A program made the translations under genes and the position numbers. The notes under the pieces are model-generated. The model saw only the letters and a list, made by a program, of their open reading frames with translations. It made no database searches and was not told the origin of the DNA. Positions 14,434-36,355 of a stretch of 64,000 bases of DNA are shown piece by piece. Location of the stretch: positions 21,080-85,079 of the forward strand of contig CALRSR020000006.1 in NCBI GenBank assembly GCA_943370825.1, written 5' to 3'. The stretch comes from Bosea thiooxidans (lineage in GTDB: Bacteria; Pseudomonadota; Gammaproteobacteria; Burkholderiales; Burkholderiaceae_C). Numbering within the stretch: the stretch's first letter is position 1; each line of letters begins with the position of its first letter.

Positions 14434-14446
14434 GTCGGGTGGGGCG

Positions 14447-14908: not shown

Positions 14909-14974
14909 GCGACATTATGATCACCGAGCCGTGACAGAACGATCACGGCATGGACCCTCAGAACGGAGACCGCC

Positions 14975-15433
14975 GTGCCCTCCCCCTCCCGTCCGACCCC
15001 CCTGCGGACCCGCCTGCCGCGCGCCCTGGCGCGGGGTTTCACCCTGATCGAGCTGATGGTGGTCCTGGTCATCATCGGCGTGCTGGCCGCCCTGATCGTG
15101 CCCAACGTGCTCGACCGCGCCGACGATGCCCGGGTCACCGCCGCCCGCACCGATGTGAACAACCTGGTGCAGGCGCTCAAGCTGTACCGGCTGGACAACC
15201 AGCGCTACCCCACCACCGAACAGGGCCTGGCCGCGCTGGTCAACCGGCCGAGCGCCGCGCCGGCACCGACCAACTGGCGGCGTTACCTGGACAAACTGCC
15301 GGCCGACCCCTGGGGCCGGCCCTACCAGTACATCAACCCGGGCGTGCACGGCGATGTGGACGTGCTCTCGCTGGGTGCCGACGGCGCCCCCGGCGGCGAT
15401 GGCCTGAACGCCGACGTCGGCAGCTGGCAGTGA
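14975..15433 (+). CDS. gspG: T2SS major pseudopilin
   Basis: GFTLIELMVVLVIIGVLAALIVP, YRLDNQRYPTTEQGL, DPWGRPYQY. Confidence 0.96.
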   Translation: MPSPSRPTPLRTRLPRALARGFTLIELMVVLVIIGVLAALIVPNVLDRADDARVTAARTDVNNLVQALKLYRLDNQRYPTTEQGLAALVNRPSAAPAPTNWRRYLDKLPADPWGRPYQYINPGVHGDVDVLSLGADGAPGGDGLNADVGSWQ

Positions 15434-15456: not shown

Positions 15457-15912
15457 ATGCGCGCCCACCGCGGTTTCACGCTGCTGGAGCTGATGGTGGT
15501 GGTGGCGCTGATCGCCCTGGCCACCACCAGCGTGGTGGTCAGCCTGCGCGACAGCAACGAGACCCGGCTGGAAACCGAAGCCCTTCGGCTGGGCGCCCTG
15601 CTCGACGCGGCCCGGGCCCAGTCGCGCACCAGCGGCGTGCCGGTGCTGTGGCGGGTCGGCGCCGACGGCTTCGGGTTCGGGCCGGCAGGTGCGGCCACCC
15701 CGACCGCCTCGACACCGGTACCCCAGCCGACGCCGTGGCTGCACGAGGGCACCACGGTGCAGATCGTGCAGCCCGCCGAAGCCCGCTGGCTGGTGCTGGG
15801 CCCCGAACCCCTGACCGTGCCGCAGCGCATCGAACTGCGCCTGGGCGAGGCCCGGCTGACCCTGGCCAGCGACGGCCTGGGGCCGTTCAGCGTGCTCCGG
15901 GGCACACCATGA
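15457..15912 (+). CDS. gspH: T2SS minor pseudopilin H
   Basis: GFTLLELMVV prepilin motif; position in operon. Confidence 0.85.
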   Translation: MRAHRGFTLLELMVVVALIALATTSVVVSLRDSNETRLETEALRLGALLDAARAQSRTSGVPVLWRVGADGFGFGPAGAATPTASTPVPQPTPWLHEGTTVQIVQPAEARWLVLGPEPLTVPQRIELRLGEARLTLASDGLGPFSVLRGTP

Positions 15913-16298
15913 AGGCGGGCATGAAAAGCCCGCGCGGCTTCACCCTGATCGAGGTGATGGTGGCCCTGGCGGTGGTGGCCGTGACCCTGCTCGCCGGGCT
16001 GCAGGCCAGCGCCGCCCTCACCCGGGCCAGCGAGCGCCAGGAAGAACAGTGGCTGGCCGAGATCTGCGCCGCCAACGAGCTGGCCCGGCTGCGGCTGGTG
16101 CGCCAGCTGCCCGGCACCGGCAGCACCACCGTGGGCTGCGAGCAGGGGCGGCGGCAGCTGCAGGTGCGGCTGACGGTGCAGACCACCCCCAACCCCAATT
16201 TCCGGCGCATCGACGCCGCCGTGCTCCGGCCCTCGGCCGATGGCGAGACCGACGCCGGCACCCTGCTGCAGGTGTCCACCGTGATGGGGCGCTTCTGA
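15909..16298 (+). CDS. gspI: T2SS minor pseudopilin I
   Basis: GFTLIEVMVAL, TTPNPNFRRI; start 15909 or 15921. Confidence 0.88.
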   Translation: MKAGMKSPRGFTLIEVMVALAVVAVTLLAGLQASAALTRASERQEEQWLAEICAANELARLRLVRQLPGTGSTTVGCEQGRRQLQVRLTVQTTPNPNFRRIDAAVLRPSADGETDAGTLLQVSTVMGRF

Positions 16299-17104
16299 TG
16301 CGCCCGCGCGGCTTCACGCTGGTGGAGATGCTGGTTGCCATCGCGGTGATGGCGGTGGTGGCGCTGCTCGGCTGGCGGGCCATCGACGGCATGCAGCGCG
16401 GGCGCGACATCAACCGCGACCACGCCGCCGGCCTGCAGCGGCTGCAGGCCGCCACCGGGCAATGGACGGCCGACCTGGATGCCCTGATCGACACCGGCGA
16501 GATCCGGCCGATCGAATTTGACGGCCGGGTGCTGCGGCTGACCCGCAACGACGCGCTGCAGTCCCGGCTCGACAGCGAAGGCCTGCGGGTGGTGGCCTGG
16601 GCCCGACGCGACAGTGCCGGCGGTTCGCGCTGGATGCGCTGGCAGTCGGAACCGGTGCGCAGCCGCGAAGCCCTGGCCCGCGCCTGGCAGGCGGGTGGCG
16701 ACTGGGGGCGCGGCGGGCAGGCCACCGAGGGCGTGGTCGATGTGCTGCCGCTGACCGACTGGCAGATCTATTTCCACCGCGGGGGCAGCTGGACCAACCC
16801 GCAGTCGTCGATCGGCAACGAAACCCCGGCCAGCGCGCCGTCGGCCTCCACGGCGGCCAGTGCCGAACTGCCGGCCGGGCTGCCGCCCGACCTGGCCAAG
16901 GCAGCCCAGGCGGCGGCTGAAGCCGTGGTGAACGACGCCGCCCCGCTGGTGTCGGACGAAGCCCCACCCGCCGCCAGCAGCCGCACCACCGCGTCGGTCG
17001 TGCCGGACGGGGTGCGCCTGGTGCTCGACCTCGGTCCCGGGCTGCCCCAGGGCGGACGCCTGCGCATCGACTGGGTTCGCCCGACGCTGGAGGCCGCGCG
17101 ATGA
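16298..17104 (+). CDS. gspJ: T2SS minor pseudopilin J
   Basis: GFTLVEMLVAIAVM; TGATG coupling to gspI. Confidence 0.88.
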   Translation: MRPRGFTLVEMLVAIAVMAVVALLGWRAIDGMQRGRDINRDHAAGLQRLQAATGQWTADLDALIDTGEIRPIEFDGRVLRLTRNDALQSRLDSEGLRVVAWARRDSAGGSRWMRWQSEPVRSREALARAWQAGGDWGRGGQATEGVVDVLPLTDWQIYFHRGGSWTNPQSSIGNETPASAPSASTAASAELPAGLPPDLAKAAQAAAEAVVNDAAPLVSDEAPPAASSRTTASVVPDGVRLVLDLGPGLPQGGRLRIDWVRPTLEAAR

Positions 17105-18087
17105 GGCCACACCGGCACCAGCGCGGCGCCGCCCTGCTGCTGGCCATGCTGATGGTCACGCTGGTGGCGGTGCTCGCCAGTGCCTCGCTCTGGCAGCAGT
17201 GGCGGGCCATCGAGATCGAACGGGCACAGCGGGTGCGGCTGCAGGCCGGCTGGCTGCTCACCGGCGCGCTGGACTGGACACGCCTGATCCTGCGCGAGGA
17301 CGGCCGTGCCAACCAGATCGCTGGCCAGCCCGACCACCTGGGCGAACCCTGGGCGCTGCCGCTGCAGGAAGCCCGGCTGTCCCGTTTTCTGGCGCTGGAC
17401 GCCAACGAGCGCGGCGACGAGCTGCTGGAGGCCTTTTTCTCCGGCGAGGTCATCGACCTGCAGTCGCGCCTGAACTTCGGCAACCTGGTGCGCCAGAGCG
17501 GCAGCGGCAACGAACTGAAAGCGGAAATCTCCCCGGTGGACCTGGAAGCCTTCCGGCGCCTGTATGCGCGGCTGGGTCTGCCGGTGGGCGAGCTGGAAGC
17601 CGCCGCCCAGGCCTGGCGGCAGACGCTGCAGCAGGCCCTGACCGACCCGCGCCCCTCCGCCACCGCCCTGATACCGCAGCGCTTCGCCCAGTTGCGCTGG
17701 CTGGGCATCTCCAGCGCCAGCCTGGCGGTGCTGGAGCCGCATGCCACCCTGCTGCCCGGCCGCACCCCGCTGAACCTGAACACCGCATCGGCCGAGGCAC
17801 TGGAAGCGGCCATCCCCGACATCGACGCCACCCAGGCCCGGGCGCTGGTGCTGGCCCGCACACGCCAGCCGCTGGTCACCCTGGCCGAGGCGCGCCGCGC
17901 GCTGTTCGGCGACCGGGTGGTGGAGGGCAATCCGCTGTCGGAGATCTACCACGACGTGCGCAGCCGCCATTTCGAGATCCGGGGCCGGCTGCGGCTGGAC
18001 GACATCACCATCGAGGAGCGCTCGGTGGTGCAGCGCAGCAACCAGGGGGTGAAGGTGCTGTGGCGGGAGCGGTTTTCGCGCAGTTGA
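17101..18087 (+). CDS. gspK: T2SS minor pseudopilin K
   Basis: QRGAALLLAML, DHLGEPWA, DLQSRLN, LNLNTASAE. Confidence 0.92.
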   Translation: MRPHRHQRGAALLLAMLMVTLVAVLASASLWQQWRAIEIERAQRVRLQAGWLLTGALDWTRLILREDGRANQIAGQPDHLGEPWALPLQEARLSRFLALDANERGDELLEAFFSGEVIDLQSRLNFGNLVRQSGSGNELKAEISPVDLEAFRRLYARLGLPVGELEAAAQAWRQTLQQALTDPRPSATALIPQRFAQLRWLGISSASLAVLEPHATLLPGRTPLNLNTASAEALEAAIPDIDATQARALVLARTRQPLVTLAEARRALFGDRVVEGNPLSEIYHDVRSRHFEIRGRLRLDDITIEERSVVQRSNQGVKVLWRERFSRS

Positions 18088-18179: not shown

Positions 18180-19442
18180 GTGACTTTCCGGCCTTTTCTG
18201 CGGCCCCGTGGCCCCCCTTCTGTGCTCATCGTCTGTCCTGTCGAATTCGAGGCCGGCGCGGCCGTGCGCCCCACCAGCGAGCTGGACTGGGTGCAGCCGG
18301 GCCCGGACGCCGCATCCCCCCGCCACGGTCGAGGGCCGGTCTCGTTGTTGCCGCGCGGCGACGACGTGGTGCTGGTGTTGCCCCCGCTGGCGGTGTCGTG
18401 GCATGCGGTGGCGCTGCCGCGCATGCCGGCCAACCGGGTGCGGGCGGCGCTGGACGGCCTGCTGGAAGACCGGCTGCTGGACGAGGTGGACCAGCTCCAC
18501 CTGGCGCTGGAGCCGGGCGGTCGGCCCGGCCAGACGCTGTGGGTGGCCGCCTGCCGGCGCGAACCGCTGGCGGCCTGGCTGGCCTTGCTGCAGGAAGGCG
18601 GACAGCGGGTGGTGCGCATCGCGCCGGCCCTGTGGCCGCAGGCCGAGGGCAGCCCGTCGTTGCACTGGGGCTTTGAATGGCAGGGCGAGGCCTGGGTGTC
18701 GCGCCAGGACGACCAGGGGGTGACCTGCCTGCCGCTGGCCGGCATGGCCGCACTCCCGACCCCGACCGAAGCCGGCGCGCGCTGGATGGCCGACGCCCCG
18801 GTGGCCGGCGCCACCGAGGCCGCGCTGCAGCGCCCGGTGTCGGTCGTCACCTGGCCGCAATGGCTGCAGCGCAGCACCGAAGGCCCCTGGAACCTGGCGC
18901 AGTTCGGCTTCAGCCTGAGCAGCAGCGCACGCCAGGGCCAGAAGATCGGCCAGTGGTGGCAACAGTTCTGGCGCGCCCCGGCCTGGCGCCCGGCCCGCCT
19001 CGGCCTGGCCGGACTGGTGGTGGTGCAGCTGCTGGGCTTGAACCTGGCGGCCCAGCAGGAACGGCGGTCGCAGGCGGCGCAGCGCGCGGCCATCGATCAG
19101 GTACTGCAGCAGAACTTTCCAGCGGTCACGCTGGTGCTCGATGCGCCGGTGCAGATGCAGCGCGAGGTGGAGCGGCTGCAACGCAGCGCCGGCGTGCTGG
19201 GCCGGTCCGACCTCGAATCGCTGCTGGCCGCGCTGGGCGCGGTGCTGCCGGACAACGGCGCCCTGCCCACGCCCGACCAGATCGCCTTCCGCGACGGCCA
19301 GTTGCGGCTGGACGGCTGGCGGGTGGAAGCGGCCCGGCTGCAGGGTCTGCAGGACGGTCTGGCGCAGGCCGGCTGGCGGCTGCAGACCGACAGCGAGGGC
19401 CTGGTGCTGACGGCCCTGCCCACCGGGGAGGCCCGCCCATGA
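18180..19442 (+). CDS. gspL: T2SS protein L
   Basis: ALDGLLEDRLLDEVDQLHLAL, WNLAQF, TM segment, LDAPVQMQR; start uncertain (18180 or 18222). Confidence 0.85.
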   Translation: MTFRPFLRPRGPPSVLIVCPVEFEAGAAVRPTSELDWVQPGPDAASPRHGRGPVSLLPRGDDVVLVLPPLAVSWHAVALPRMPANRVRAALDGLLEDRLLDEVDQLHLALEPGGRPGQTLWVAACRREPLAAWLALLQEGGQRVVRIAPALWPQAEGSPSLHWGFEWQGEAWVSRQDDQGVTCLPLAGMAALPTPTEAGARWMADAPVAGATEAALQRPVSVVTWPQWLQRSTEGPWNLAQFGFSLSSSARQGQKIGQWWQQFWRAPAWRPARLGLAGLVVVQLLGLNLAAQQERRSQAAQRAAIDQVLQQNFPAVTLVLDAPVQMQREVERLQRSAGVLGRSDLESLLAALGAVLPDNGALPTPDQIAFRDGQLRLDGWRVEAARLQGLQDGLAQAGWRLQTDSEGLVLTALPTGEARP

Positions 19443-19972: not shown

Positions 19973-20773
19973 ATGCGCAGCGCCCCCGCCATCGCCCGCC
20001 CTGCCCTGTTGTGGGCCGCCGCCGTGCTGGGCCTGCTGCTGGCCCTGGCTTTTTTTGCGCCGGCCCGCTGGCTGACCGACCGCGTGACGCAGGCCACGGC
20101 CGGGCAGGTGCAGCTGGTAAACGCGCGCGGCACGGTCTGGAACGGCTCGGCCGATCTGGTGCTCAGCGCCGGTGCCGACAGCCGGGACCGCGCCGGACTG
20201 CCCGGCGGCCTGCAGTGGCGGCTGCGCCCCGGTCTGGCCGGCGCCTGGCCCGCGCTGCGTCTGGGCCTGAGCCTGCCCTGCTGCGCCAGCACCGCCCTGC
20301 AGCTGGCCACCCACCCTTCGGCCAACGGCTGGCGGGTGGCTGCTGCGGCCTGGGATGTGGCCTGGCCGGCGGCCCTGCTGGCCGGCCTGGGAACGCCCTG
20401 GAACACGCTCCAGCTGGAAGGCCGGCTCCGGCTGCAGACCGACGCCCTGGAGGCCCGCTGGCAGGACGGCGGCTGGGCGCTGGACGGCCAGGCCAGCCTG
20501 CAGGCCACCGACATCGCCTCGCGGCTGGCCACGGTGCGGCCGCTGGGCAGCTACCAGGCCACGCTGGAGGCCACCGACGGTCTGCCACCCCGCATCGGCG
20601 TGCGCACCGAATCGGGCGCCCTGCAGATCCAGGGCCAGGGCAGCTGGCGCGGCGGGCGCCTGCGCTTCGCCGGCGAAGCCCGGGCCGCTCCCGCCCACGA
20701 GGCCGATCTGGCCAACCTGCTCAACCTCATGGGGCGGCGCCGCGGCGACCGCTCCCTGCTCCAGATGGGCTGA
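19973..20773 (+). CDS. gspN: T2SS protein N
   Basis: FAPARWL, ARGTVWNGSA, GLGTPWNTLQ, RPLGSY, LNLMGRR. Confidence 0.88.
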   Translation: MRSAPAIARPALLWAAAVLGLLLALAFFAPARWLTDRVTQATAGQVQLVNARGTVWNGSADLVLSAGADSRDRAGLPGGLQWRLRPGLAGAWPALRLGLSLPCCASTALQLATHPSANGWRVAAAAWDVAWPAALLAGLGTPWNTLQLEGRLRLQTDALEARWQDGGWALDGQASLQATDIASRLATVRPLGSYQATLEATDGLPPRIGVRTESGALQIQGQGSWRGGRLRFAGEARAAPAHEADLANLLNLMGRRRGDRSLLQMG

Positions 20774-20810: not shown

Positions 20811-22982
20811 ATGAACGCCTCGCGCCCCGACACCCGCCGCAGCGAACGCCCGGCCCGCACCGGCTCCACCACCCACCGGCTGCGCCGGACCCTGACCGGC
20901 ACGCTGCTGGCCCTGGGCCTGGCCAGCCTGCCACTGCAGGCCCAGCCGGTGCGCAGCAACGAGCCGGTGACGCTGAACTTTGTGGGCGCCGAGATCGAGG
21001 CGGTGGCCCGCACCATGGCCACCATCACCGGCCGCAATGTGGTGGTCGACCCCCGGGTGCAGGGGCAGATCACGCTGGCCACCGACCGGCCAGTCACGCC
21101 GGCGGCCGCCGTCAACCAGTTCGCGGCGGCGCTGCGGCTGCAGGGCTTCTCGCTGGTGGACACCGGCGGGCTCTACAAGGTGGTGCCGGAGGCCGATGCC
21201 AAGCTCATGGGCAGCGTGGTGGTGGCCGGTGCCGGCCCCGGTGCGGCACCGAACACGGTGGTCACCCAGATCTTCCGGCTCAACCACGAGTCGGCCAACA
21301 ACCTGGTGCCGGTGCTGCGGCCCCTGATCGGGCCCAACAACACCATCAACGTCAACCCGGGCAACAACTCGCTGGTCATCACCGACTACGCCGACAACCT
21401 GCAACGCATCGGCCGCATCATTGCCTCGCTCGACGTGGCGGGCGCCACCGACATCGAGATCATTCCGCTGCAGCACGCGCTGGCCGCCGATCTGGTGCCG
21501 CTGGTGCAGCGCCTGATCGAACCCGGCGGCAGCACCGGCGGCGGTGGCGGCAACGGTGCCGCTGCGGCCGGCGACGCCAGCTACCGCACCACCATCGTGG
21601 CCGAGCCGCGCAGCAATGCGCTGGTGCTGCGCGCCGCCAACCCGGCGCGGCTGGCGCTGGTGCGTTCGCTGGTGACGCGGCTGGACCAGCCCACCGCCGG
21701 CGCGCAGGCGGCGGGCAACATCCATGTGGTCTACCTCAAGAACGCCAACGCGGTGGCGCTGGCCGCCACGCTGCGGGCCGCCATCTCCGGCAGCGCCGGT
21801 TCGGCGCCCGCCTCGGGCAGCGTGCTGCGCACCGCGGGGGCGACCTCCAGCGGGCTGGCCGGCGGCCTTTCCACCGGCGCCGGTGCGGCGGGCAGCTTCG
21901 GCGGCAACGCCGGTTCGGCGGCCGCCAGCGCGCCGCTGGCGGCCAACGAGGGGCCGAGCACCGGCGGCCAGATCCAGGCCGACCCGGCCACCAACTCGCT
22001 GATCATCACGGCGCCCGAGCCGCAGTACCGACAGCTGCGCGCCGTCATCGACCAGCTCGATTCGCGCCGGGCGCAGGTGTATGTGGAGAGCCTGATCGCC
22101 GAGGTGAACGCCGACAAGGCGGCCGAATTCGGCATCCAGTGGCAAGGCGCTTCGGGCCGCGACGGCGACCGCACCATCGGCCTGCTGGGCACCAACTTCG
22201 GCAGCGGTGGCCGCAGCATCGTCGACCTCTCCAAGCAGGACGACTTTTCCCCCGCGCCCGGCCTGAACCTGGGCATTGCGCGGCGCAACAACGGCGTGTA
22301 TGTGCTGGGCTTCCTGGCCCGCTTCCTGCAGCAGAACGGCGACGGCAACATCCTGTCCACGCCCAACCTGCTGACGCTGGACAACGAGGAGGCGCGCATC
22401 GTGATCGGCCAGAACGTGCCTTTCGTGACCGGCCAGTTCACCAACACCGGCGCGGCCAACGGCGCGGTCAACCCGTTCCAGACCATCGAGCGCAAGGACG
22501 TCGGCCTGACCCTGCGGGTGCGGCCGCAGATCAGCGAGAACGGCACCATCAAGATGACCATCTACCAGGAGGTCAGCAATGTGCAGCCGCAGTCGGTGAA
22601 CTCGCCCACCGGCCTGATCACCAACGTGCGCAGCATCGAGTCCACCGTGCTGGTGGACGACGGCGCCATCGTGGTGCTGGGCGGCCTGCTGCAGGACGAA
22701 TACGCCGGCAACCAGGACAAGGTGCCCGGCCTGGGCGATGTGCCGGTGCTGGGCAACCTGTTCCGCAGCGAGAGCCGCAGCCGCCGCAAGACCAACCTGA
22801 TGGTGTTCCTGCGCCCGGTGGTCATGCGCGACAGCCGCGAGACCACCAACCTGGCGCTGGACCGCTACGACCTGATGCGGGCCGCCCAGCGCGAGGTGCA
22901 GCCGGCCAACAGCAGCGTGCTGCCGATCAACGAATCGCCGGTGCTGCCGCCCCCCAACGAAGCGCCCAAGGTCCGGCCGTGA
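20811..22982 (+). CDS. gspD: T2SS secretin
   Basis: LNFVGAEIEAV, IDQLDSRRAQVYVE, STPNLLTLDNEEA, ERKDVGLTLRVRPQI, KVPGLGDVPVLGNLFRS. Confidence 0.96.
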   Translation: MNASRPDTRRSERPARTGSTTHRLRRTLTGTLLALGLASLPLQAQPVRSNEPVTLNFVGAEIEAVARTMATITGRNVVVDPRVQGQITLATDRPVTPAAAVNQFAAALRLQGFSLVDTGGLYKVVPEADAKLMGSVVVAGAGPGAAPNTVVTQIFRLNHESANNLVPVLRPLIGPNNTINVNPGNNSLVITDYADNLQRIGRIIASLDVAGATDIEIIPLQHALAADLVPLVQRLIEPGGSTGGGGGNGAAAAGDASYRTTIVAEPRSNALVLRAANPARLALVRSLVTRLDQPTAGAQAAGNIHVVYLKNANAVALAATLRAAISGSAGSAPASGSVLRTAGATSSGLAGGLSTGAGAAGSFGGNAGSAAASAPLAANEGPSTGGQIQADPATNSLIITAPEPQYRQLRAVIDQLDSRRAQVYVESLIAEVNADKAAEFGIQWQGASGRDGDRTIGLLGTNFGSGGRSIVDLSKQDDFSPAPGLNLGIARRNNGVYVLGFLARFLQQNGDGNILSTPNLLTLDNEEARIVIGQNVPFVTGQFTNTGAANGAVNPFQTIERKDVGLTLRVRPQISENGTIKMTIYQEVSNVQPQSVNSPTGLITNVRSIESTVLVDDGAIVVLGGLLQDEYAGNQDKVPGLGDVPVLGNLFRSESRSRRKTNLMVFLRPVVMRDSRETTNLALDRYDLMRAAQREVQPANSSVLPINESPVLPPPNEAPKVRP

Positions 22983-24412
22983 AGTACCCGCTGCCCTACG
23001 CGTTTTCCCGCGAGCATCTCTGGCTGCTGGAGCAGGACCGCGACGGTGCGCCAGCCGTGTTGCTGGGCGCTGCGCTGGACAGCCCCGACCCGCTGCGGCA
23101 GCGGCAGCGCGCCTCTGCCCTGTCGGAGCTGTTGCGCTGGCAGGGCGGGCAGCCGCCGCGCGAGGTGCGCTGGCTGCCCGCCGACGAGCTGGCCCAGCGC
23201 ATCAGCGCGGCCTATGCCGGCAACGAATCGAGTGCGGCGGCGGTGGTGAGCGAGGTGCAGGGCGTGGCCGACCTCAGCCGCATGATGCAGGAGCTGCCCG
23301 CCATCGAAGACCTGCTGGAGGCCGCTGACGACGCGCCCATCATCCGCATGCTCAATGCGCTGCTGACCCAGGCGGTGCGCGACGGCGCCAGCGACATCCA
23401 CATCGAGCCCTACGAACGGCACTCCAGCGTGCGCTTCCGGGTCGACGGCACGCTGCGGGAAGTGGTGCAGCCCAACCGCGCGCTGCACGCGGCCCTGATC
23501 TCGCGGCTGAAGATCATGGCCGAGCTCGACATCTCGGAAAAACGGCTGCCGCAGGACGGCCGCATCAGCCTGCGCATCGGGACCCGGGCGGTGGACGTGC
23601 GGGTCTCCACCCTGCCTGGCGCCCACGGCGAACGCGCCGTGCTGCGCCTGCTGGACAAGAGCGAGGGCCAGCTGGAGCTGGAGTCGGTGGGCATGCAGGG
23701 CGAGGTGCTGCGCCGCTTCGACCAGCTGGTGCGCCAGCCGCACGGCATCATCCTGGTGACCGGCCCCACCGGCTCCGGCAAGACCACCACGCTGTATGCC
23801 GCGCTGCAGCGGCTGGACGCCGGCAGCAGCAACATCATGACGGTCGAGGACCCGATCGAATACGAGCTGCCCGGCATCGGCCAGACGCAGGTCAACGCCA
23901 AGATCGACCTGACCTTCGCCAAGGCCCTGCGCGCCATCCTGCGGCAGGACCCGGACGTGATCATGATCGGCGAGATCCGCGACTTCGAGACCGCGCAGAT
24001 CGCCATCCAGGCCTCGCTCACCGGCCACCTGGTGCTGGCCACCCTGCACACCAACGACGCGGCCAGCGCCATCACCCGGCTGGCCGACATGGGCGTGGAG
24101 CCCTTCCTGCTGAGCTCATCGCTGCTCGGTGTGCTGGCCCAGCGGCTGGTCCGCAAGACCTGCACCGCCTGCCTGGGTGCCGGATGCGAGGCCTGCGGAC
24201 AGACCGGTTATGCCGGCCGCACCGGCGTGTTTGAACTGCTGGTGGCCGACGAGGCGCTGCGCGCGCTCATCCACCGCCAGGCCAGCGAGGCCGAGCTGCG
24301 CGAATGCGCACTGGCCGGCGGCATGGTGCTGATGCGCGACGACGGTCAGCGCCTGGTGCAGGCCGGCGTCACTACCAGCGAAGAGCTGCTGCGCGTCACC
24401 CGCGACGTCTGA
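22979..24412 (+). CDS. gspE: T2SS ATPase
   Basis: ASDIHIEP, GPTGSGKTTTLY, LRQDPDVIMIGEIRD, Cys4 motif; GTG start overlaps the gspD stop. Confidence 0.96.
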   Translation: MKYPLPYAFSREHLWLLEQDRDGAPAVLLGAALDSPDPLRQRQRASALSELLRWQGGQPPREVRWLPADELAQRISAAYAGNESSAAAVVSEVQGVADLSRMMQELPAIEDLLEAADDAPIIRMLNALLTQAVRDGASDIHIEPYERHSSVRFRVDGTLREVVQPNRALHAALISRLKIMAELDISEKRLPQDGRISLRIGTRAVDVRVSTLPGAHGERAVLRLLDKSEGQLELESVGMQGEVLRRFDQLVRQPHGIILVTGPTGSGKTTTLYAALQRLDAGSSNIMTVEDPIEYELPGIGQTQVNAKIDLTFAKALRAILRQDPDVIMIGEIRDFETAQIAIQASLTGHLVLATLHTNDAASAITRLADMGVEPFLLSSSLLGVLAQRLVRKTCTACLGAGCEACGQTGYAGRTGVFELLVADEALRALIHRQASEAELRECALAGGMVLMRDDGQRLVQAGVTTSEELLRVTRDV

Positions 24413-24438
24413 TCCGGCCGCGCGCCTGAACGCGGTTC

Positions 24439-24474
24439 AAAAACCCCCGTCAGCTGAAGCTGCGGGGGTTTTTT
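24439..24474. terminator. Intrinsic terminator directly after gspE
   Basis: AAAAA-CCCCCG-T-CAGC-tgaa-GCTG-CGGGGG-TTTTTT. Confidence 0.85.
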
Positions 24475-24855
24475 ATTGACCTTAAGGCCGGCTTTATTTC
24501 TCATCTTGTTACTTCGATTACGTTTGTTAACGTCCGCACCAACTTTGTGACACTCCACTGTCAGTCGGAGGTTTTAGCCCCGAAGGACTACTTTTGTGTA
24601 AACAAAGGTATTCATTTTTTCAGGTGACTGATTGGTCACCCCGGTTTATAACACCGGTTCGGTCTACACAGACTGTTGATTGACCCCTTGAAGCCCTCAC
24701 CGAAAAATCACGCGGACGGATACCGGTTGTAAGCAAATCTGGCGAAGTGCTTCAAAGCCTGCCAGATGTTGACGTTTGTCAACGGCGTCCTCCCCGGCAC
24801 GGCGACGGCATTTCCCGTCGCATGCCGGCCCCCACACCGCGACGGGAGCTTCGAC

Positions 24856-26580
24856 ATGAACAAGAGCCACACACCAGGGCCGGATCAGGCCAGCCGCAGC
24901 GCCACCGGCATGAGCCGGCGCGATTCCCTCAAGCTGGGCGCCGCCAGCGCCGTGGCCGCCGGCCTGGGTCTGGCCCCGAGCCAGCAGGCCCAGGCGGAAG
25001 ACGTGCCGCCCGGACCGCCCACCGCCCCCTGGACCATGCCGCTGACCGTGATGCGGCCCAAGAAGCCAGTGGCCGAACTGCTGCCCCCACCGACCCGTGA
25101 AGCCGGGCCGAAAGAGGCCGGGCGGGCACCGCACCAGATCTGGGGCGAACCGCCCCACGCCCTGTACCGGATCGTGGTGAAGGAAGGCCAGCACTCGTTC
25201 CACCCAAACCTGCCGACCCAGACCATCCGCGGTTACGACGGCACCTTCCCCGGCCCCTGCATCGTTTCGCGTTACGACGAAGCCGCCCTGGTGCGCTTCG
25301 TGAACCAGATCGACCCGTATGCGGTGGGTTTCGGATCGCCCGAAATCTCGGTGCACCTGCACAACCTGCACTGCGCCTCCGAGAGCGACGGTTTTGCCGG
25401 CGACTACTGGGGCACGCTGCGCCACGGTCCCGGCCTGACCCGCCCGGGCAACTACAAGGACCACCTGTTCATGAACTACTACGCCGGGTTCTCCACCGAC
25501 CCGGCCGGCGTGGGCGATCAGCGCGAGGCCCTGGGCACGCTGTGGTTCCACGACCACCGCATGGACTACACCGAGCAGAACGTGTACCGGGGCATGATCG
25601 GTTCGTACCTGCTGTTCGACGAGATCGACTCCGGCAACGAGAACGACCCGAACCCGAAGGCCCTGCGCCTGCCCAGCGGCGTGGGCACCTACGACCAGGT
25701 GCTGATGATCTCGGACGTGCAGTTCGACCTCAGCGGCAACATGGTGTTCAACCCGATGTCGGAGAACAAGGGGCACCTGGGCAACAAGATCACGGTCAAC
25801 GGCCGCGTCCAGCCCTACTTCCGGGTGCAGCGGCGCAAGTACCGCTTCCGCATCATCGACGCCAGCGTGGCCCGCTTCTACGAGTTCTACCTCATGAACG
25901 GCACGAACTCGGAAGACTTCCAGTTCATCGCCAACGACGGCAACCTGCTCGAAGCGCCGCTGACCATGAACCGGATTCGCCTGGCCCCCGGCGAACGCAA
26001 CGACATCGTCATCGACTTCAGCAAGTACCCGCTGAGTACCAAGCTGTTCCTGGTGAACCGCCTGGCCATGAAGGATGGTCGCGGGCCCGAGGGCCTGGTG
26101 GCGAAGGGCACCCAGGTGCTGCGATTCGACGTGGCGGCCAACCCGGCCACGCCGGACAACAGCCGGGTGCCGGCCCGCCTGCGCGAGCAGCCGCCGATCG
26201 ACCTGAGCCAGGTCACCCGCCGCCGCTTCTGGGACTTCGACAAGAAGAACTCCATGTGGGCGGTCAACAGCGAACTCTTCGATGTCGAAAAGCCGGCCGC
26301 CCGCATTCCCAAGGGCAGTACCGAGATCTGGACATTGCAGGGACACGGCAGCTGGTTCCACCCGGTCCACATCCACATGGAGGAGTTCCGCATCCTCTCG
26401 CGCAACGGGAAACCGCCACCACCGCACGAACAAGGCCGCAAGGACGTGGTGGTGCTGGCCCCGGACGAGCGTGTGGAGGTGCTGATCAAGTTCCGGGACT
26501 TCACCGGCAAGTACGTCATGCACTGCCATAACCTCTCGCACGAGGACCACGCCATGATGATCCGGTTCGACGTGGTCTGA
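24856..26580 (+). CDS. Tat-exported three-domain multicopper oxidase
   Basis: Twin-Arg signal SRRDSLK; Cu motifs HLH, WFHDH, HPVHIH, HCHNLSHEDHAM. Confidence 0.95.
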   Translation: MNKSHTPGPDQASRSATGMSRRDSLKLGAASAVAAGLGLAPSQQAQAEDVPPGPPTAPWTMPLTVMRPKKPVAELLPPPTREAGPKEAGRAPHQIWGEPPHALYRIVVKEGQHSFHPNLPTQTIRGYDGTFPGPCIVSRYDEAALVRFVNQIDPYAVGFGSPEISVHLHNLHCASESDGFAGDYWGTLRHGPGLTRPGNYKDHLFMNYYAGFSTDPAGVGDQREALGTLWFHDHRMDYTEQNVYRGMIGSYLLFDEIDSGNENDPNPKALRLPSGVGTYDQVLMISDVQFDLSGNMVFNPMSENKGHLGNKITVNGRVQPYFRVQRRKYRFRIIDASVARFYEFYLMNGTNSEDFQFIANDGNLLEAPLTMNRIRLAPGERNDIVIDFSKYPLSTKLFLVNRLAMKDGRGPEGLVAKGTQVLRFDVAANPATPDNSRVPARLREQPPIDLSQVTRRRFWDFDKKNSMWAVNSELFDVEKPAARIPKGSTEIWTLQGHGSWFHPVHIHMEEFRILSRNGKPPPPHEQGRKDVVVLAPDERVEVLIKFRDFTGKYVMHCHNLSHEDHAMMIRFDVV

Positions 26581-26601
26581 CACCGCCCCAGGAGCACACA
26601 C

Positions 26602-27189
26602 ATGAACAGCAAACGCAACCTCCTGCGCCTGGCCGGCACCGCCCTGCTCGCCCCTATGGCCGCCCAGGCCGCCGCCCCTTCGCTGCGACGGCGCAGCAGC
26701 ATGGCCAGCTACTTCCCCAACGTGACGCTGGAAACGCACGACGGGCGCAAGGTGAAGCTCTACGACGACCTCATCCGCGACAAGCTGGTGGCCTTCAACA
26801 TGATGTATTCGATCTGCGAAGGCATCTGCCCGAAGAACACCGCCAACCTGCGCCAGGTGCACGAAGAACTCGGCCCGCGCGTGGGCCGGGACATCTTCCT
26901 CTACTCCATCACCCTGCGCCCGGAGTTCGACAACGCCGCTGCCCTGCGCGACTACATCCGCCACTACAACATCCAGCCCGGCTGGACCTTCCTGACCGGC
27001 CGCCGGCAGGACGTGGAGCGGGTGCGCGTGGCGCTGGGCTTCGTGGGTGACGACGCCAAGACCGACGCCGACATCACCCAGCACACCGGCATGCTGCGCA
27101 TCGGCAACGACCGGCTGGACCGCTGGACCATGACGCCGGCCCTGGGCTCGCACCGCCAGATCAAGCGCACCATCCTCGAGCTGACCTGA
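26602..27189 (+). CDS. SCO1/SenC family copper chaperone
   Basis: CEGIC (CxxxC), SITLRPEFD, GWTFLTG, conserved His in QHTG; KRNLL Tat-like signal. Confidence 0.9.
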   Translation: MNSKRNLLRLAGTALLAPMAAQAAAPSLRRRSSMASYFPNVTLETHDGRKVKLYDDLIRDKLVAFNMMYSICEGICPKNTANLRQVHEELGPRVGRDIFLYSITLRPEFDNAAALRDYIRHYNIQPGWTFLTGRRQDVERVRVALGFVGDDAKTDADITQHTGMLRIGNDRLDRWTMTPALGSHRQIKRTILELT

Positions 27190-27236
27190 TGGCCCGGCGG
27201 GCGCGTGGCGTCACACAGCCGCGCTAACATGCCCGG

Positions 27237-28457
27237 ATGCCCGCCTACTCCTTCGAAGCCCTGGACGAGCAGGGCCAGACCCGCAGCGGCCTGATCGACG
27301 CCGACACCGCACGCGCCGCCCGCGCGTTGCTGCGCTCGCGCTCGCTGGTGCCGCTGTCGGTCGAGCCGGCCAAGGCCGGCGCCGACGACGGCCAGACCCG
27401 CCGCACCGCCGGTGGCCGGCGGGTGTTCAATGCCACCGGCCTGGCCGTCTGGACCCGCCAGCTGGCCGGTCTGGTGGGCGCTGGCCTGCCGCTGGAACGT
27501 GCCCTGGCCGCCCTCGGCGACGAGGCCGAGGACCCGCGCCAGCAGCGCCTGGTGGCGGTGCTGCGCGCCGAGGTGAACGGCGGTGCATCGTTCGCCCGCA
27601 GCCTGTCCGACCATCCGCAGGAATTCTCCGCATCCTTCTGCGCCGTCATCGCCGCCGGTGAACAGAGCGGCCAGCTCGCCGCCGTGCTGGACCGTCTGGC
27701 CGATGACCTGGAAGCCCGCGAAGCGCTGCGCAACAAATTGATCGCGGCCTCCCTCTACCCGGCCATCGTCACCCTGGTGGCGGTGGTCATCGTGGTGTTC
27801 CTGGTGGCCTATGTGGTGCCACAGGTGGCCAGCGTGTTCGAGGGCAGCCAGCGCGCCCTGCCGCTGCTGACCGTGGTCATGCTGGGCATCAGCGGCTTCG
27901 TGCGCAGCTGGGGCTGGCTGCTGCTGGGCCTGCTGCTGGCTGGCGGCATCGGCCTGAAGCTGGCCCGCCGTCAGCCGGCGCTGCGGCTGCGCATGGACCA
28001 GGCCTGGCTGCGCCTGCCGCTGGCCGGGCGCATCGCCCGGGGCTACAACGCGGCCCGGTTTGCGGCCACGCTGGCCATGCTGGCCGGCGCGGGCGTGCCC
28101 ATCCTGCGGGCGCTGCAGACCGCCGCCGAGACCCTGCACAACCAGGCGCTGCGGGCCGATGCCCTGGCCGCACTGGTGCTGGTGCGAGAAGGGGCGCCAC
28201 TGGCCTCGGCCCTGGCCAGCCAGAACCGCTTTCCGCCGCTGCTGGTGCTGTTTGCCCGACTGGGCGAGCAGACCGGCGAGCTGCCGGCCATGCTGCAGCG
28301 CGCGGCCGACCAGCTGGGCGCCGAGGTGCAGCGGCGCTCGCTCAACCTGGCCACCCTGCTGGAGCCGCTGCTCATCGTGGGCATGGGGCTGATCGTGATG
28401 CTCATCGTGCTGGCGGTGCTCATGCCCATCATCCAGCTCAACCAACTTGTGACCTGA
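27237..28457 (+). CDS. gspF: T2SS inner membrane platform protein
   Basis: MPAYSFEALD, TRQLAGLVGAGLPLERAL, AGEQSGQL, SLYPAIV, GEQTGEL, LLEPLLIV. Confidence 0.96.
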   Translation: MPAYSFEALDEQGQTRSGLIDADTARAARALLRSRSLVPLSVEPAKAGADDGQTRRTAGGRRVFNATGLAVWTRQLAGLVGAGLPLERALAALGDEAEDPRQQRLVAVLRAEVNGGASFARSLSDHPQEFSASFCAVIAAGEQSGQLAAVLDRLADDLEAREALRNKLIAASLYPAIVTLVAVVIVVFLVAYVVPQVASVFEGSQRALPLLTVVMLGISGFVRSWGWLLLGLLLAGGIGLKLARRQPALRLRMDQAWLRLPLAGRIARGYNAARFAATLAMLAGAGVPILRALQTAAETLHNQALRADALAALVLVREGAPLASALASQNRFPPLLVLFARLGEQTGELPAMLQRAADQLGAEVQRRSLNLATLLEPLLIVGMGLIVMLIVLAVLMPIIQLNQLVT

Positions 28458-28463
28458 ATCCCC

Positions 28464-29360
28464 ATGGGCGTTTCCCTGGACGGCAAACTGGTGGTGGCGA
28501 TCTCCTCGCGCGCCCTGTTCGATTTCGAGGCCGAGAACCACCTGTTCGAGAAAGGCGATGACCGCGCCTACATGCGGCTGCAGCTGGAGAAGCTGGACGA
28601 GCCGGCCCACCCCGGCGTGGCCTTCTCGCTGATCCGCAAGCTGCTGAGCTTCAACGATGCGGCCAACCAGCGGGTCGAGGTGGTCATGCTCTCGCGCAAC
28701 GACCCGGTGTCGGGCCTGCGGGTGTTCCGCTCGGTCAAGGACCACGACCTGCAGGTGCAGCGCGGCGTGTTCACCCGGGGCCGCGACCCCTGGCGCTACC
28801 TGGCACCACTGAAGGCCAACCTGTTCCTCTCGGCCAATGCGACCGATGTGCGCGCAGCCCTGAACATGGGCTTCCCGGCCGCCACCGTGGCCACCCACTC
28901 GGCCCGGGCACCCAACAATTACCCCAACGAGGTGCGCATCGCCTTCGACGGCGACGCGGTGCTGTTCTCGGACGAGGCCGAACAGGTCTACCAGGCCCAG
29001 GGCCTGCCGGCCTTCCAGCTGCACGAATCCAGCAAGGCCAGCCAGCCGCTGCCCGGCGGGCCGTTCAAGCCGCTGCTCGAAGCGCTGCAGCGCCTGCAGC
29101 AGGAAGGCACGCCCCACATGCGCATCCGCACCGCGCTGGTCACCGCCCGCAGCGCCCCGGCCCACGAACGCGCCATCCGCACCCTGATGGACTGGAACAT
29201 CGAGGTCGACGAGGCCATGTTCCTCGGCGGCATGGACAAGGGCGAATTCCTGCGGGCCTTTGAACCCGACTTCTTCTTCGACGATCAGACCGGCCACATC
29301 GAATCCGCCGCCCGCCATGTGCCCGCCGGGCATGTGGCCAGCGGCATCGCCAACCCCTGA
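28464..29360 (+). CDS. 5'-nucleotidase (cN-I-like family)
   Basis: LVVAISSRALFD, RIAFDGDAVLF, TARSAPAHER, FFDDQ. Confidence 0.9.
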   Translation: MGVSLDGKLVVAISSRALFDFEAENHLFEKGDDRAYMRLQLEKLDEPAHPGVAFSLIRKLLSFNDAANQRVEVVMLSRNDPVSGLRVFRSVKDHDLQVQRGVFTRGRDPWRYLAPLKANLFLSANATDVRAALNMGFPAATVATHSARAPNNYPNEVRIAFDGDAVLFSDEAEQVYQAQGLPAFQLHESSKASQPLPGGPFKPLLEALQRLQQEGTPHMRIRTALVTARSAPAHERAIRTLMDWNIEVDEAMFLGGMDKGEFLRAFEPDFFFDDQTGHIESAARHVPAGHVASGIANP

Positions 29361-29366
29361 GGTCCC

Positions 29367-31175
29367 ATGACTGCCGAGATGTCCGTTGCACCGCCCGTGA
29401 AGTTGTCGCGCTGGCAAGCGTTCCGCGAGTTCGCCGGCAAGGTCGCCCGCCTCACCGCCCCCTATTTCAGCTCCGAGGAAAAGTGGAAGGCCCGGGGCCT
29501 GCTGGCCGCCATCGTGGCGCTCAACCTGGGCGCGGTCTACATGCTGGTGCAGATCAACGAATGGAACCGGGTGTTCTACGACGCGCTGCAGAACAAGGAC
29601 GCCGAGGTCTTCTGGCGCGAACTGGGCCGCTTCACGTATCTGGCCTTCGGCTTCATCCTGATCGCGGTCTACCGCTTCTACCTGACCCAGCTGCTGGAGA
29701 TGCGCTGGCGCGCCTGGATGACCGGCCACTACCTGGACCGCTGGCTCACCCACCAGCGCTTCTACCAGCTCGAACTGCAGCGCCATGCGCGCGGCGCCGA
29801 TGCGCCACCGGACAACCCGGACCAGCGCATCGCCGAAGACATGAACCTGTTCACCAGCTACTCGGTGAGCCTGTCCATGGGCCTGCTCAATGCGGTGGTG
29901 ACGCTGGTGAGCTTCGTGGGCATCCTGTGGTCGCTCTCGGGCAGCTTCGCCTTCAACTTCAACGGACAGAGCTGGGACATCCCCGGCTTCATGGTCTGGA
30001 TGGCGGTGGTGTATTGCGTGGCCGGCAGCGTCATCACCCATTACATCGGTCGGCCGCAGATCGGCCTGAACTTCCGCCAGCAGCGCTTCGAGGCCGACTT
30101 CCGCCACCACCTGGTGCGGGTGCGCGAGTACAGCGAATCCATCGCGCTCGACAAGGGCGAACCGGTTGAGCGGCGCCACCTGGGCCAGCGCTTCCAATCG
30201 GTGCTGTCGAACTACCTGCAGCTGATCAACGCCCAGAAGCGGCTGACCTGGTTCACCGTGGGCTTCGGCCAGGCGGCCGTGGTGTTCCCCTTCATCGTGG
30301 CCGCACCGCGCTTCTTCAGCGGCGCCATCCAGCTCGGTGAGCTCATCCAGATCGCCTCGGCCTTCGGGCGGGTGCAGGACGCGCTCTCGTGGTTCGTCGA
30401 CAACTACAGCAGCCTGGCCGCCTGGCGCGCCACCACCGACCGCATCACCAGCTTCGAGGAAAGCTTCCAGGCCCTGCAGACCGGGGGTGCCGACACCGCG
30501 CCGGCATCCGGCTCGGCCGACGACACCCTGGCCCTGGACCGCATGGACCTGGCCCTGCCCGGCGGCGTGGCGCTGCTGGGCGTGACCGGCCTGCGCCTGT
30601 CACCCGGCGACCGGGTGTTGCTGCAGGGCCCGTCGGGCAGCGGCAAGTCCACCCTGTTCCGGGGCCTGGCCGGCATCTGGCCCTGGGCACAGCGCCAGCT
30701 GCAGCTGCCGGCCGACTTTGCGACGCGGGCCATGTTCCTGCCGCAGCGGCCCTACTTTCCCACCGGCCCGCTGCGCGACGCCCTGGCCTACCCCGAGCCG
30801 GCCGAACGCTACACCGACGATCAGCTGCGCCAGGCGCTGAACGACGCCCTGCTGCCCGATCTGGGCGCCCGACTGGACGAGGTGGACAGCTGGGGGCAGA
30901 AGCTCTCAGGCGGAGAACAGCAGCGCCTGGCCGCCGCACGCGCCCTGCTCAAGCAGCCCCGCTGGCTGTTCGTGGACGAAGCCACCAGCGCGCTTGATCC
31001 GGCGGCCGAAGCCGCCTTGTACGAACGGCTGCAGGCCCTGGTGCAGGCGCAGAACGGTGCCCTGATCTCGATTGCCCACCGCCCGGCCGTGGCCGCCTTC
31101 CACAACCGGCAGTGGACGCTGGTGCCGGGGGACGGCACCGAAGGCGCGCCGCGTTACCGGGTGGCCGCGGCGTAA
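29367..31175 (+). CDS. Fused ABC transporter permease/ATPase (YddA / BacA-like, ABCD type)
   Basis: [41 protein letters not shown]. Confidence 0.92.
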
Positions 31176-34413: not shown

Positions 34414-36330
34414 TCAGCGGCCCACGGTCTGCAGCAGGCTGTCGAAGGTGCTCTGCGCGATCTGCAGGAACTTGGCCGACGCCTGGTAGGCCTGCTGGAA
34501 CTGCAGCAGCCGGGCGGCTTCCTCGTCCAGATTGACGCCGGCCACGCCGGCCCGGGCGGCCTCGGCCGTGGCGGCCACATTGCCCGAGAACTCGGCCGCG
34601 AACTGCGCGCCCTGCACCCGGGTGCCGATGTCGGAGAACAGGCTCACATAGCCATCGGCCAGCGAGACGCCGTCAAAGGTGGCCAGGTCGCGCAGGGCCA
34701 GCACGGCGCTGGCATTGCCGGCGTTCTGGGCCAGGCCGTTGGCCGGCGAGGCCTGCACCGCGAAGGTGTCGCCCGCCGTGGGCGCGCCACGCAGGGTCAG
34801 GCTCCAGCCATTGACCTGGATCGGCTCGCCCGGGGCGTAGTTGTAGACCGTGGCCGGGTTGGTGATGCTGGCGCCACTGAGCGTGTAGGTGCCGTTGGCG
34901 CCGAAGGTGATGCTGACCGGGCTGGTCAGGTTGGCGTCCTGGGCGGTGGCGTACAGGCTCTCCACCGACAGGCTGCCGCTGTTGGTGGTGCCCGGGGTCA
35001 CCGCCACCGGGCTGGCCGCCGCCAGCTTGTCGGGAGCGCCGATGGCCACCTGGATGTTGCGCGCGGCGGCCTCGAACGGGCGGGACCGGAAACGGTCGTT
35101 GGCGCCCAGGGCGCCGCTGTCCAGGGTGAAGGTCAGGCCGTCCACCTCGACGGGCAGCGCGCCGGTGGCCAGCGGCGGGTTGCCGGCCGGCGGGGTCATG
35201 GTGTTGTCGGACAGGCGCACGATGCGCAGGCCGCCGGCTTCGGCGCGGATGTCGTAGTCCGAGGCCTTGAGGGCCGAGGGATCGGTCACCGTCACGCTGA
35301 AGGCGGCATTGCCGGTGTTGGCCGGCGCGGCGATGGCCGCCATCGGCGGGGTGGGTGCAAAGAAGGGCTGGCCGGGCTGACCGGTCAGATCCACACCCAG
35401 GGCGTGCTGGCCGTTGACGATGGTGGCGGTGGCCAGGGCCATGCGGCCGATCTGGTTCTGTGCGGCGGCCAGGTCTTCGTTCAGGAAGCGCACCATGCCG
35501 GCCAGCTCGCCGCCACCCAGGGCCGCCAGATTCAGGTCCGACTGGGTGCTGCCCTGCAGGAAGGACACCTGGATGCGCGAGGTGTCCACCGGATCGCGCG
35601 TGACCGCCAGCCGGGCCGGCTGCGAGCCCAGCACCAGTGGCTGGCTGCCGCCCACGAACACGTTGACCGTGCCGCTCTCGCCGGGCACGGTGGCGATCTT
35701 GACCAGCTGGCTCATCTCGGCGAGCAGCTGGTCGCGCGAATCCAGCAGGTCGTTGGGGGTGTGCGAACCACCGGCGTTCTCGATGATGCTCTGGTTGACG
35801 GCGGCGAGGTCCTTGGCCAGGCGGTTGATGGACTCCACCGTGGTCTGCACCTGCAGCTCGGTGCCCTGCTTGAGCAGGTCCAGCTGGCCGGCGGTGTTGC
35901 GCAGGCGGCTGGCGAATTCGTCGGCGCGGGCAATGGTCACCACGCGGGCGGTCAGGTTGCTGGGCGCCGAGGTCACATCGTTCCAGGCGTTGAGCATGCT
36001 GTTGAGCGCCGTGCCCAGGCCGTTCTCGCCCATGGGGAAGGCCTTCTCCAGCTGCTGCAGGCGCGCCAGGCGAACGCTGTCGGCCGCCGCGGTGGAGCTG
36101 GTGGCCCGGGCCTCGCTGGTGAGGTAGGCGCTGTGGGTGCGCTCGACCGTGGCGATCTCCACACCCTTGCCGAAGTAGCCGCTGCCCATGGCCTGATAGC
36201 CGGAACTCTGCAGCTGCACCGTCTGGCGCGAGTAGCCCTCGGTGTTGACGTTGGCGATGTTGTGGCCGATGACCTGCAGGGCGGACAGGTTGGCATTGAG
36301 CGCACGGGTGGCGATGTTGAGGGATGACAT
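34414..36330 (-). CDS. flgK: Flagellar hook-associated protein 1
   Basis: GHNIANVNTEGYSRQ, PNDLLDSRD, GVNLDEEAARLLQFQQAYQASAK. Confidence 0.96.
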   Translation of the reverse strand: MSSLNIATRALNANLSALQVIGHNIANVNTEGYSRQTVQLQSSGYQAMGSGYFGKGVEIATVERTHSAYLTSEARATSSTAAADSVRLARLQQLEKAFPMGENGLGTALNSMLNAWNDVTSAPSNLTARVVTIARADEFASRLRNTAGQLDLLKQGTELQVQTTVESINRLAKDLAAVNQSIIENAGGSHTPNDLLDSRDQLLAEMSQLVKIATVPGESGTVNVFVGGSQPLVLGSQPARLAVTRDPVDTSRIQVSFLQGSTQSDLNLAALGGGELAGMVRFLNEDLAAAQNQIGRMALATATIVNGQHALGVDLTGQPGQPFFAPTPPMAAIAAPANTGNAAFSVTVTDPSALKASDYDIRAEAGGLRIVRLSDNTMTPPAGNPPLATGALPVEVDGLTFTLDSGALGANDRFRSRPFEAAARNIQVAIGAPDKLAAASPVAVTPGTTNSGSLSVESLYATAQDANLTSPVSITFGANGTYTLSGASITNPATVYNYAPGEPIQVNGWSLTLRGAPTAGDTFAVQASPANGLAQNAGNASAVLALRDLATFDGVSLADGYVSLFSDIGTRVQGAQFAAEFSGNVAATAEAARAGVAGVNLDEEAARLLQFQQAYQASAKFLQIAQSTFDSLLQTVGR

Positions 36331-36355
36331 GTCGGTCTCGCGTTGGCCGTCGGGC

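Follow-up and report, generated by a model that had tools for sequence, protein, structure and literature searches.

The stretch of DNA analysed here (the window, 64,000 nucleotides) spans positions 21080–85079 of contig C6 in a 3.45-Mb Hydrogenophaga genome and contains, on its + strand, a complete type II secretion system (T2SS) operon that is interrupted by a 2.8-kb cassette encoding a multicopper oxidase (MCO) and a copper chaperone. The gene order is gspG and the pseudopilin genes, gspK, gspL, gspM, gspN, gspD, gspE, the cassette and gspF. At the interrupted junction, all on the + strand, lie the ATPase gene gspE (22979–24412; TIGR02533, 644.9 bits against a cut-off of 630.25), an intrinsic terminator (~24439–24478), an AT-rich leader or regulatory region of ~380 nt (24479–24855), a gene for a three-domain MCO of 574 aa with a twin-arginine translocation (Tat) signal (24856–26580), a gene for a 195-aa copper chaperone of the SCO1/SenC type (SCO; 26602–27189), a 47-nt spacer (27190–27236) and gspF, which encodes the inner-membrane platform protein (27237–28457; TIGR02120, 439.5 bits against a cut-off of 424). 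An earlier note on this DNA, made from its letters alone (the sequence-only reading), had recognised this anatomy, and every element of it was found where that reading had placed it.

The MCO matches the Pfam families Cu-oxidase_3, Cu-oxidase and Cu-oxidase_2, which correspond to three cupredoxin domains, and its four copper motifs supply the type 1 ligands (His, Cys, His and Met) as well as the eight histidines of the type 2 and type 3 sites. These ligands (H167/H169, H232/H234, H502/H505/H507 and H556-C557-H558/H562/M567) are invariant among 17 homologues with identities down to 39%. The N terminus carries a twin-arginine signal, SRRDSLK (SRRDSLKLGAASAVAAGLGL...AQA), with a hydrophobic h-region and an AxA cleavage site; R21 and R22 are present in 17/17 homologues, and the arginine pair was kept in every further homologue inspected. 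A phmmer search of the PDB sequences returned the Myrothecium bilirubin oxidase (3e-68) and Bacillus CotA (5e-54), followed by CueO (4e-36). The AlphaFold2 model of the protein (pTM 0.81) aligned in Foldseek with bilirubin oxidase at a TM score of 0.72–0.77 and with CotA at ~0.70–0.80, at 27–32% identity, and the closest named homologue, 91% identical, is that of Hydrogenophaga sp. IBVHS2. Domain content, ligand set and predicted fold place the MCO in the three-domain branch of bilirubin oxidase and CotA, with a predicted oxidase activity. Assignment as a CueO-type cuprous oxidase was rejected, as the corresponding model, NF008205, scored 186.8 bits against a cut-off of 525, and the CueO structures ranked well below those of bilirubin oxidase and CotA. 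The resemblance to the Mn(II) oxidases MofA and McoA seen in the sequence-only reading was not sustained, since both size and export route differ and the nearest solved relatives are the Myrothecium and Bacillus enzymes; membership of the large MofA/McoA/MnxG type was likewise rejected on architecture, the window MCO being a Tat protein of 574 aa, whereas McoA (1,131 aa) and MnxG (1,944 aa) are both exported by Sec (PMC13689576).

The chaperone gene, which follows that of the MCO, encodes a thioredoxin-like SCO domain (PF02630; score 51 bits, cut-off 22.8) in which a CEGIC-P (CxxxCP) motif and a distal histidine are present; no NCBIfam equivalog matched it. Its signal peptide (26602–26690) reads S-K-R-N-L-L-R, with KR where more distant homologues have RR, and the SCO may thus itself be a Tat substrate that uses a KR variant of the signal. 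GC content at third codon positions is 0.90–0.94 in the MCO and SCO genes, equal to that of the host, which speaks against recent foreign import. No insertion sequence or integrase was seen within the 2.8-kb segment, and on these two grounds recent import by a mobile element was rejected.

The terminator 3′ of gspE has a 10-bp GC stem with one bulge, followed by a U-tract, and was missed by a simple consensus scan because of that 1-nt bulge; its fold of -27 kcal/mol (z -4.6 relative to shuffled sequences) was equalled by 0/200 shuffles. GC content falls to 0.51 over positions 24400–24799, versus ~0.70 in the flanks, and within the leader a promoter scan found the promoter-like sequence TTGACC-17-AAAAAT at 24680–24708, along with small palindromes. 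The -35-like element TTGATTGAC and further leader blocks are common to the window, a second genome (G014) and both leaders of the metagenome contig L029. In the spacer between the SCO gene and gspF, no + strand terminator was found. Together with the strong terminator after gspE, this suggests that in the sublineage of the window gspF is probably co-transcribed with the cassette from the oxidase promoter. The strong terminator also occurs in the four closest relatives of the window, whereas other cassette-bearing loci have only weak hairpins or none after gspE, and it is therefore a trait of this sublineage and not of the cassette. Such a pattern bears on the idea that the cassette is mainly a regulatory insertion, in which a terminator and a new promoter ahead of gspF place T2SS assembly under the inducing signal of the oxidase, by whatever route the oxidase itself leaves the cell. 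That idea would account for the terminator and the short, terminator-free gap before gspF at a junction where the two genes are otherwise tightly coupled (2–20 nt apart in most relatives), yet it fits poorly with the other cassette-bearing lineages and with Polaromonas, which keeps an MCO–SCO pair with no T2SS gene beside it, and we regard it as very improbable.

The premise that gspE and gspF are normally adjacent proved correct: in all 15 cassette-free loci compared (12 from Hydrogenophaga and 3 from other genomes of the order) the two genes are neighbours, with spacers of ~2–140 nt and, in most, of 2–20 nt, so that they are nearly fused, and the order M-N-D-E-F-5′-nucleotidase-ABC transporter is conserved. 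No remnants or scars of a cassette were found in these 15 spacers. A relative of the window MCO is carried by 13 of 131 Hydrogenophaga genomes and, in 11 of the 131, it lies exactly between gspE and gspF, always with an SCO gene. The same nesting occurs in metagenome contigs L029–L032 and in G364, a genome of a different genus of the same family. The sequence-only reading had held that an ancestral and widespread arrangement would count against it; the arrangement does recur within the genus, but in only ~8% of its species. No description of nesting of this type in a T2SS operon was found in the literature searched.

Three of the 11 nested Hydrogenophaga loci have two MCO genes in tandem (L135, L136 and L137, from genomes G462, G440 and G457), as do contigs L029/L030, the copies being ~63% and ~70% identical to the window MCO. 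In these loci each MCO gene has its own AT-rich leader, and a single SCO gene follows both copies, still between gspE and gspF. In a further genome, G523, the 1.3 kb between gspE and the MCO gene (L138:6725-8026) consists of the frame-broken remains of a first tandem copy with an internal deletion, a fragment that we read as decay of a cassette gene in progress. The remaining two of the 13 MCO-bearing genomes (G456 and G465) have another MCO subtype, of 47–48% identity, which adjoins a giant gene resembling that of the haem peroxidase MopA and an ATP-binding cassette (ABC) transporter gene.

On the MCO tree the Hydrogenophaga enzymes nested between gspE and gspF form one clade with 100/100 support, and the G364 enzyme falls outside it, among those of Polaromonas, a metagenome-assembled genome (MAG) of Variovorax and other genomes of the same family. 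On the tree of the flanking GspE and GspF proteins, loci with and without the cassette are intermingled, a distribution that takes at least five changes of state to explain, and a single clade of cassette-bearing loci was rejected by the approximately unbiased (AU) test (p 0.00015). The combination of a single MCO clade with scattered flanking genes indicates one origin followed by repeated loss or recombination. On this phylogenetic evidence, the cassette arose once within Hydrogenophaga at the gspE–gspF junction, where it is now polymorphic for presence or absence; since then, either it has been lost several times or recombination in the conserved gspE and gspF flanks has carried it from species to species, and the scarless empty sites fit either history. 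Nesting was kept while MCO identity fell to ~63–72% within the genus. In Polaromonas (L034/L049 and L061), the MCO–SCO pair lies 3′ of ilvA and cob genes and directly 5′ of the same 5′-nucleotidase and SbmA-like ABC transporter genes that follow gspF in Hydrogenophaga, and the T2SS of Polaromonas is on another contig.

Beyond this family, the MCO was compared against one genome per prokaryotic species, which yielded at least 596 relatives. The best 80 loci, which were inspected, span Pseudomonadota, Nitrospirota, Acidobacteriota, Myxococcota, Planctomycetota, Verrucomicrobiota and other phyla, and in most of them an SCO gene is directly 3′ of the MCO gene, the exceptions being mainly the most distant matches (31–38% identity) and contig ends. 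The Pseudomonas homologues (~590 aa, 44–48% identity) each have an SCO gene downstream, as do 10/10 loci in the family of the window, where the module is rare (10 of 400 genomes). Retention of this gene order across many phyla marks the MCO and SCO genes as a conserved functional pair.

Linkage of the pair to T2SS genes also recurs at a distance. In a Nitrospira MAG (L052, 5325–17504) the genes run GspC-like, GspD, MCO, SCO, di-haem cytochrome c peroxidase (MauG-like), GspE, GspF and pseudopilins; with a different junction in a different phylum, gene order identifies this nesting between gspD and gspE as independent. Upstream, the same MAG carries a divergently oriented gene for a sigma-54 response regulator. 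Genes gspE and gspF lie within 2–4 kb of the MCO–SCO pair in two more loci, from a Sphingomonadales MAG and a Terriglobia MAG (L075 and L095). A random gene would lie within 8 kb of gspE or gspF with a chance of ~0.5%, a rough estimate and not a computed value, and by the same rough reckoning linkage in several independent lineages is well above it. The functional tie between cassette and T2SS put forward in the sequence-only reading is thus backed by recurrence in Hydrogenophaga, G364, L052 and L075/L095 and by the gsp genes reported near the iodide oxidase (iox) cluster (PMC9415286). Its description of the T2SS as dedicated to this cargo did not survive: the system is a general one, present in 23 of 24 sampled genomes of the genus and 319 of 401 of the family, most of them without the cassette.

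As to the substrate, the partners of the pair at other loci are informative. Giant genes with the Pfam domain An_peroxidase adjoin MCO–SCO in five loci: the peroxidase domain is accompanied by RTX repeats in two metagenome contigs (L046 and L047), Methylotetracoccus oryzae (L057) and Sphingomonas (L122), and a partial open reading frame (ORF) in a Variovorax MAG (L048) shows the peroxidase domain only. The MopA-like matches that adjoin MCO–SCO in G456 and G465 were obtained by tblastn. From their domains, these An_peroxidase/RTX giants have the architecture of the Mn-oxidising peroxidase MopA, and a two-component pair of the HisKA_3/GerE type is often present at the loci that combine peroxidase and MCO–SCO. 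In the genome of the window itself, another contig (C35:1-9700, L142) has consecutive genes for a response regulator of the GerE type, a HisKA_3 kinase, a MopA-like An_peroxidase/RTX protein of 2,080 aa and a type I ABC exporter. The first three of these also flank MCO–SCO in L046/L047, but on C35 the MCO–SCO pair is absent. As annotated from sequence, the genome of the window thus holds both arms, MCO–SCO and a MopA-like peroxidase, each beside an export system. The MCO leader (24500–24760) and the region 5′ of the MopA-like gene (L142:7186-7449) have in common the 9-mers TCTTGTTAC, TGCTTCAAA and AAGCAAATC and a GTATTCAT block. Three shared 9-mers, where about one is expected by chance, are not significant as common regulator motifs for these two regions, and a common regulator of the two genes would be a weak lead at best.

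Because relatives of the module adjoin MopA-type peroxidases, because the genome has a MopA-type locus of its own, and because Mn(II)-oxidising Hydrogenophaga strains are known (PMC12896264), Mn(II)/Mn(III) heads the list of candidate substrates, and we would give it somewhat less than an even chance. The suggestion of a Mn oxidase in the sequence-only reading, taken as a candidate substrate, gains independent support from the repeated adjacency of MCO–SCO to MopA-type haem peroxidases. Iodide or phenolics, as for the Iodidimonas oxidase, are possible alternatives by analogy. The window MCO might accordingly be compared with IoxA, a 62-kDa MCO with SCO1/SenC homologues, flanking gsp genes and relatives in Gammaproteobacteria and Nitrospirae (PMC9415286), and be a secreted iodide or phenol oxidase of that type, acting in antagonism or in humic and phenolic turnover instead of in Mn oxidation. 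Clusters resembling iox (MCO, SCO, ~620-aa protein, SCO) are indeed found among the distant relatives (L068 and L072), but they belong to a separate deep clade of the MCO tree at ~38–42% identity, the window has neither an IoxC-like partner nor extra SCO copies in a comparison that for IoxA itself was by description only, and the closest MCO clades are those linked to MopA-type peroxidases, so that we judge an IoxA-type role to be quite unlikely. Two members of the iox-like clade (L041 and L072) encode SCO-like proteins without the CxxxC cysteines, followed by the ~620-aa protein, which has no Pfam match and may be an IoxC-like partner. No Iodidimonas entry was found among the best 120 matches to an iox-like query.

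The recurrence of the nesting in related and in distant bacteria argues that the enzyme is probably a secreted oxidase. We propose, and consider it an even chance, that it is copper-loaded by the periplasmic SCO and exported first by Tat and then by the T2SS, with Mn(II) as the leading candidate substrate. The 2.8-kb segment would then constitute a self-contained and widely conserved module of two genes that brings its own promoter region and encodes a Tat-exported MCO and its cognate SCO1/SenC chaperone. The MCO, whose signal is observed and whose export is predicted from it, would cross the inner membrane by the Tat pathway; the SCO would load its four coppers in the periplasm, as the strict pairing of the genes suggests; the surrounding T2SS would push the folded enzyme across the outer membrane, as their recurrent physical linkage suggests; and the extracellular MCO would oxidise its substrate outside the cell with O2. 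T2SS cargo has no sequence signature by which this route could be read from the protein itself.

Several observations weigh against this proposal. Most members of the MCO–SCO family, as judged from the best 80 of the at least 596 relatives, are not near T2SS genes. Nor is the T2SS enriched among MCO carriers in the family (8/10, against a background of 80%), and with such frequencies co-occurrence at the genome level is uninformative. GspL was not detected in two MCO-bearing genomes, those of Methylotetracoccus and Sorangium. The system is not one reserved for this cargo, since ~90% of Hydrogenophaga species possess the same T2SS but lack the cassette. CueO and FtsP, two examples of MCOs that use the Tat pathway, reside in the periplasm. 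The link to MopA is guilt by association, an association only, and MopA itself is exported by type I secretion. Some of these points would be expected if the MCO–SCO pair formed a periplasmic oxidase, serving in Cu(I) or Fe(II) detoxification or acting on a periplasmic metabolite, that happens to occupy a permissive intergenic site, its position in the T2SS operon being irrelevant to export. This alternative also draws on the fact that CueO is the top NCBIfam match of the window MCO, though far below the cut-off, and on the cassette bringing its own promoter. It is harder to reconcile with nesting at two distinct T2SS junctions, in different phyla, with the two further loci that have T2SS genes near the pair, with the retention of nesting while the MCO itself diverged within the genus, with the low CueO score of an enzyme nearest to bilirubin oxidase and CotA, with the absence of cop or cus genes adjoining the cassette, and with the secreted peroxidases that partner MCO–SCO elsewhere. 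We consider a periplasmic oxidase possible but doubtful.

A broader extension of our proposal of Tat-then-T2SS secretion is a two-armed system of extracellular oxidation in Hydrogenophaga and its relatives, in which a MopA-type peroxidase is coupled to a type I exporter and MCO–SCO to the type II operon, and in which, in the sublineage of the window, the oxidase promoter captured gspF and thereby tied assembly of the whole machine to the oxidase signal. This scheme is speculative, and we think it rather unlikely to hold in full; if true, a cargo gene would control its own secretion machine.

The remainder of the operon, the sole T2SS of the genome, has all core genes (gspD, E, F, G, K, L, M and N) detected above curated cut-offs. 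On the + strand, in order and by their Pfam matches, it comprises gspG (14975–15433; T2SSG), the minor pseudopilin genes (15457–17104; N_methyl), gspK (17101–18087; T2SSK), gspL (18180–19442; T2SSL/GspL_C), the gspM region (to 19960; T2SSM), gspN (19973–20773; T2SSN) and the secretin gene gspD (20811–22982; Secretin, Secretin_N and GspD N0), which has an ATG start at 20811 and whose stop is overlapped by the GTG start of gspE. Downstream of gspF, also on the + strand and identified by Pfam, are the genes for a PF06189 5′-nucleotidase (28464–29360) and an SbmA/BacA-like ABC transporter (29367–31175), a pair that is syntenic 3′ of gspF in all Hydrogenophaga loci. Directly 5′ of gspG is an ORF of 197 aa (14327–14920, + strand) with coding-like GC at third positions that matches no Pfam family; it may encode a T2SS component that escaped recognition, e.g. 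GspC. Genes farther out, a cNMP-binding/CBS/DUF294 nucleotidyltransferase gene upstream of the operon (12511–14604, - strand) and the gene for the flagellar hook-associated protein FlgK downstream of it (34414–36378, - strand), look ordinary.

The arrangement is real, recurrent and testable, while its mechanism is what we infer from it. In the literature on Pseudomonas and Iodidimonas, the copper supply of bacterial Mn and iodide oxidases and their way out of the cell are matters still to be explained (PMC13689576, PMC9415286), and close Hydrogenophaga species that differ only by a 2.8-kb oxidase–chaperone cassette in their T2SS operon provide a natural experiment. Three claims become testable in this way: that an SCO metallates a Tat-exported MCO, that a copper oxidase is exported by Tat and then by the T2SS, and that a cargo promoter drives gspF. 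The large, phylum-spanning MCO–SCO family, with its links to MopA-type peroxidases, would also be a candidate for a missing class of Mn oxidases in environmental surveys.

Among known systems, the ioxABCDEF clusters of Iodidimonas sp. Q-1 and Roseovarius sp. A-2 encode an extracellular MCO of ~62 kDa and three SCO homologues; gsp genes flank the Iodidimonas cluster, their role being left open by the authors, and relatives have been reported in Gammaproteobacteria and Nitrospirae (PMC9415286). The window resembles these clusters in its 574-aa MCO, the SCO1/SenC gene directly downstream and the surrounding gsp genes, but it has one SCO instead of three, no IoxC-like (~71 kDa) or IoxE partner and only two genes between gspE and gspF, and its cassette lies inside the gsp operon whereas the iox cluster lies beside gsp genes. 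Pseudomonas putida GB-1 depends on a specialised T2SS (xcm) to oxidise Mn at its surface, its mcoA and mnxG genes have SCO1/SenC companions proposed to encode copper chaperones, with mcoA-SCO1 as a conserved pair, and the haem peroxidase MopA is a third Mn oxidase, under two-component regulation (PMC13689576). The window has the same succession of an MCO gene and a SCO1/SenC gene; in a comparison by description only, it differs in the size and Tat export of its MCO and in its nesting, as the Pseudomonas oxidase genes are not located within a T2SS operon. Enzymes of the CotA or bilirubin oxidase type, e.g. BoxA of Arthrobacter, can oxidise Mn(II) (cited in PMC12896264). The window MCO has the three-cupredoxin fold and the copper ligand set of the bilirubin oxidase of Myrothecium verrucaria (2xll, 6iqz) and of CotA of Bacillus subtilis (1gsk), although these enzymes, the one a secreted fungal protein and the other a component of the spore coat, lack the Tat signal, the SCO partner and the T2SS context. 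A two-step route by Tat and then the type II pathway, such as we propose for the MCO, is reportedly followed by the phospholipases PlcH and PlcN of Pseudomonas aeruginosa, which are said, in work attributed to Voulhoux and colleagues in 2001, to be exported by Tat and then Xcp; these are unrelated cargo proteins, without a copper cofactor or a chaperone. By analogy, the module nested between gspE and gspF would work like the iox and mcoA-SCO1 systems, yet it fits neither the McoA/MnxG type nor the full iox cluster.

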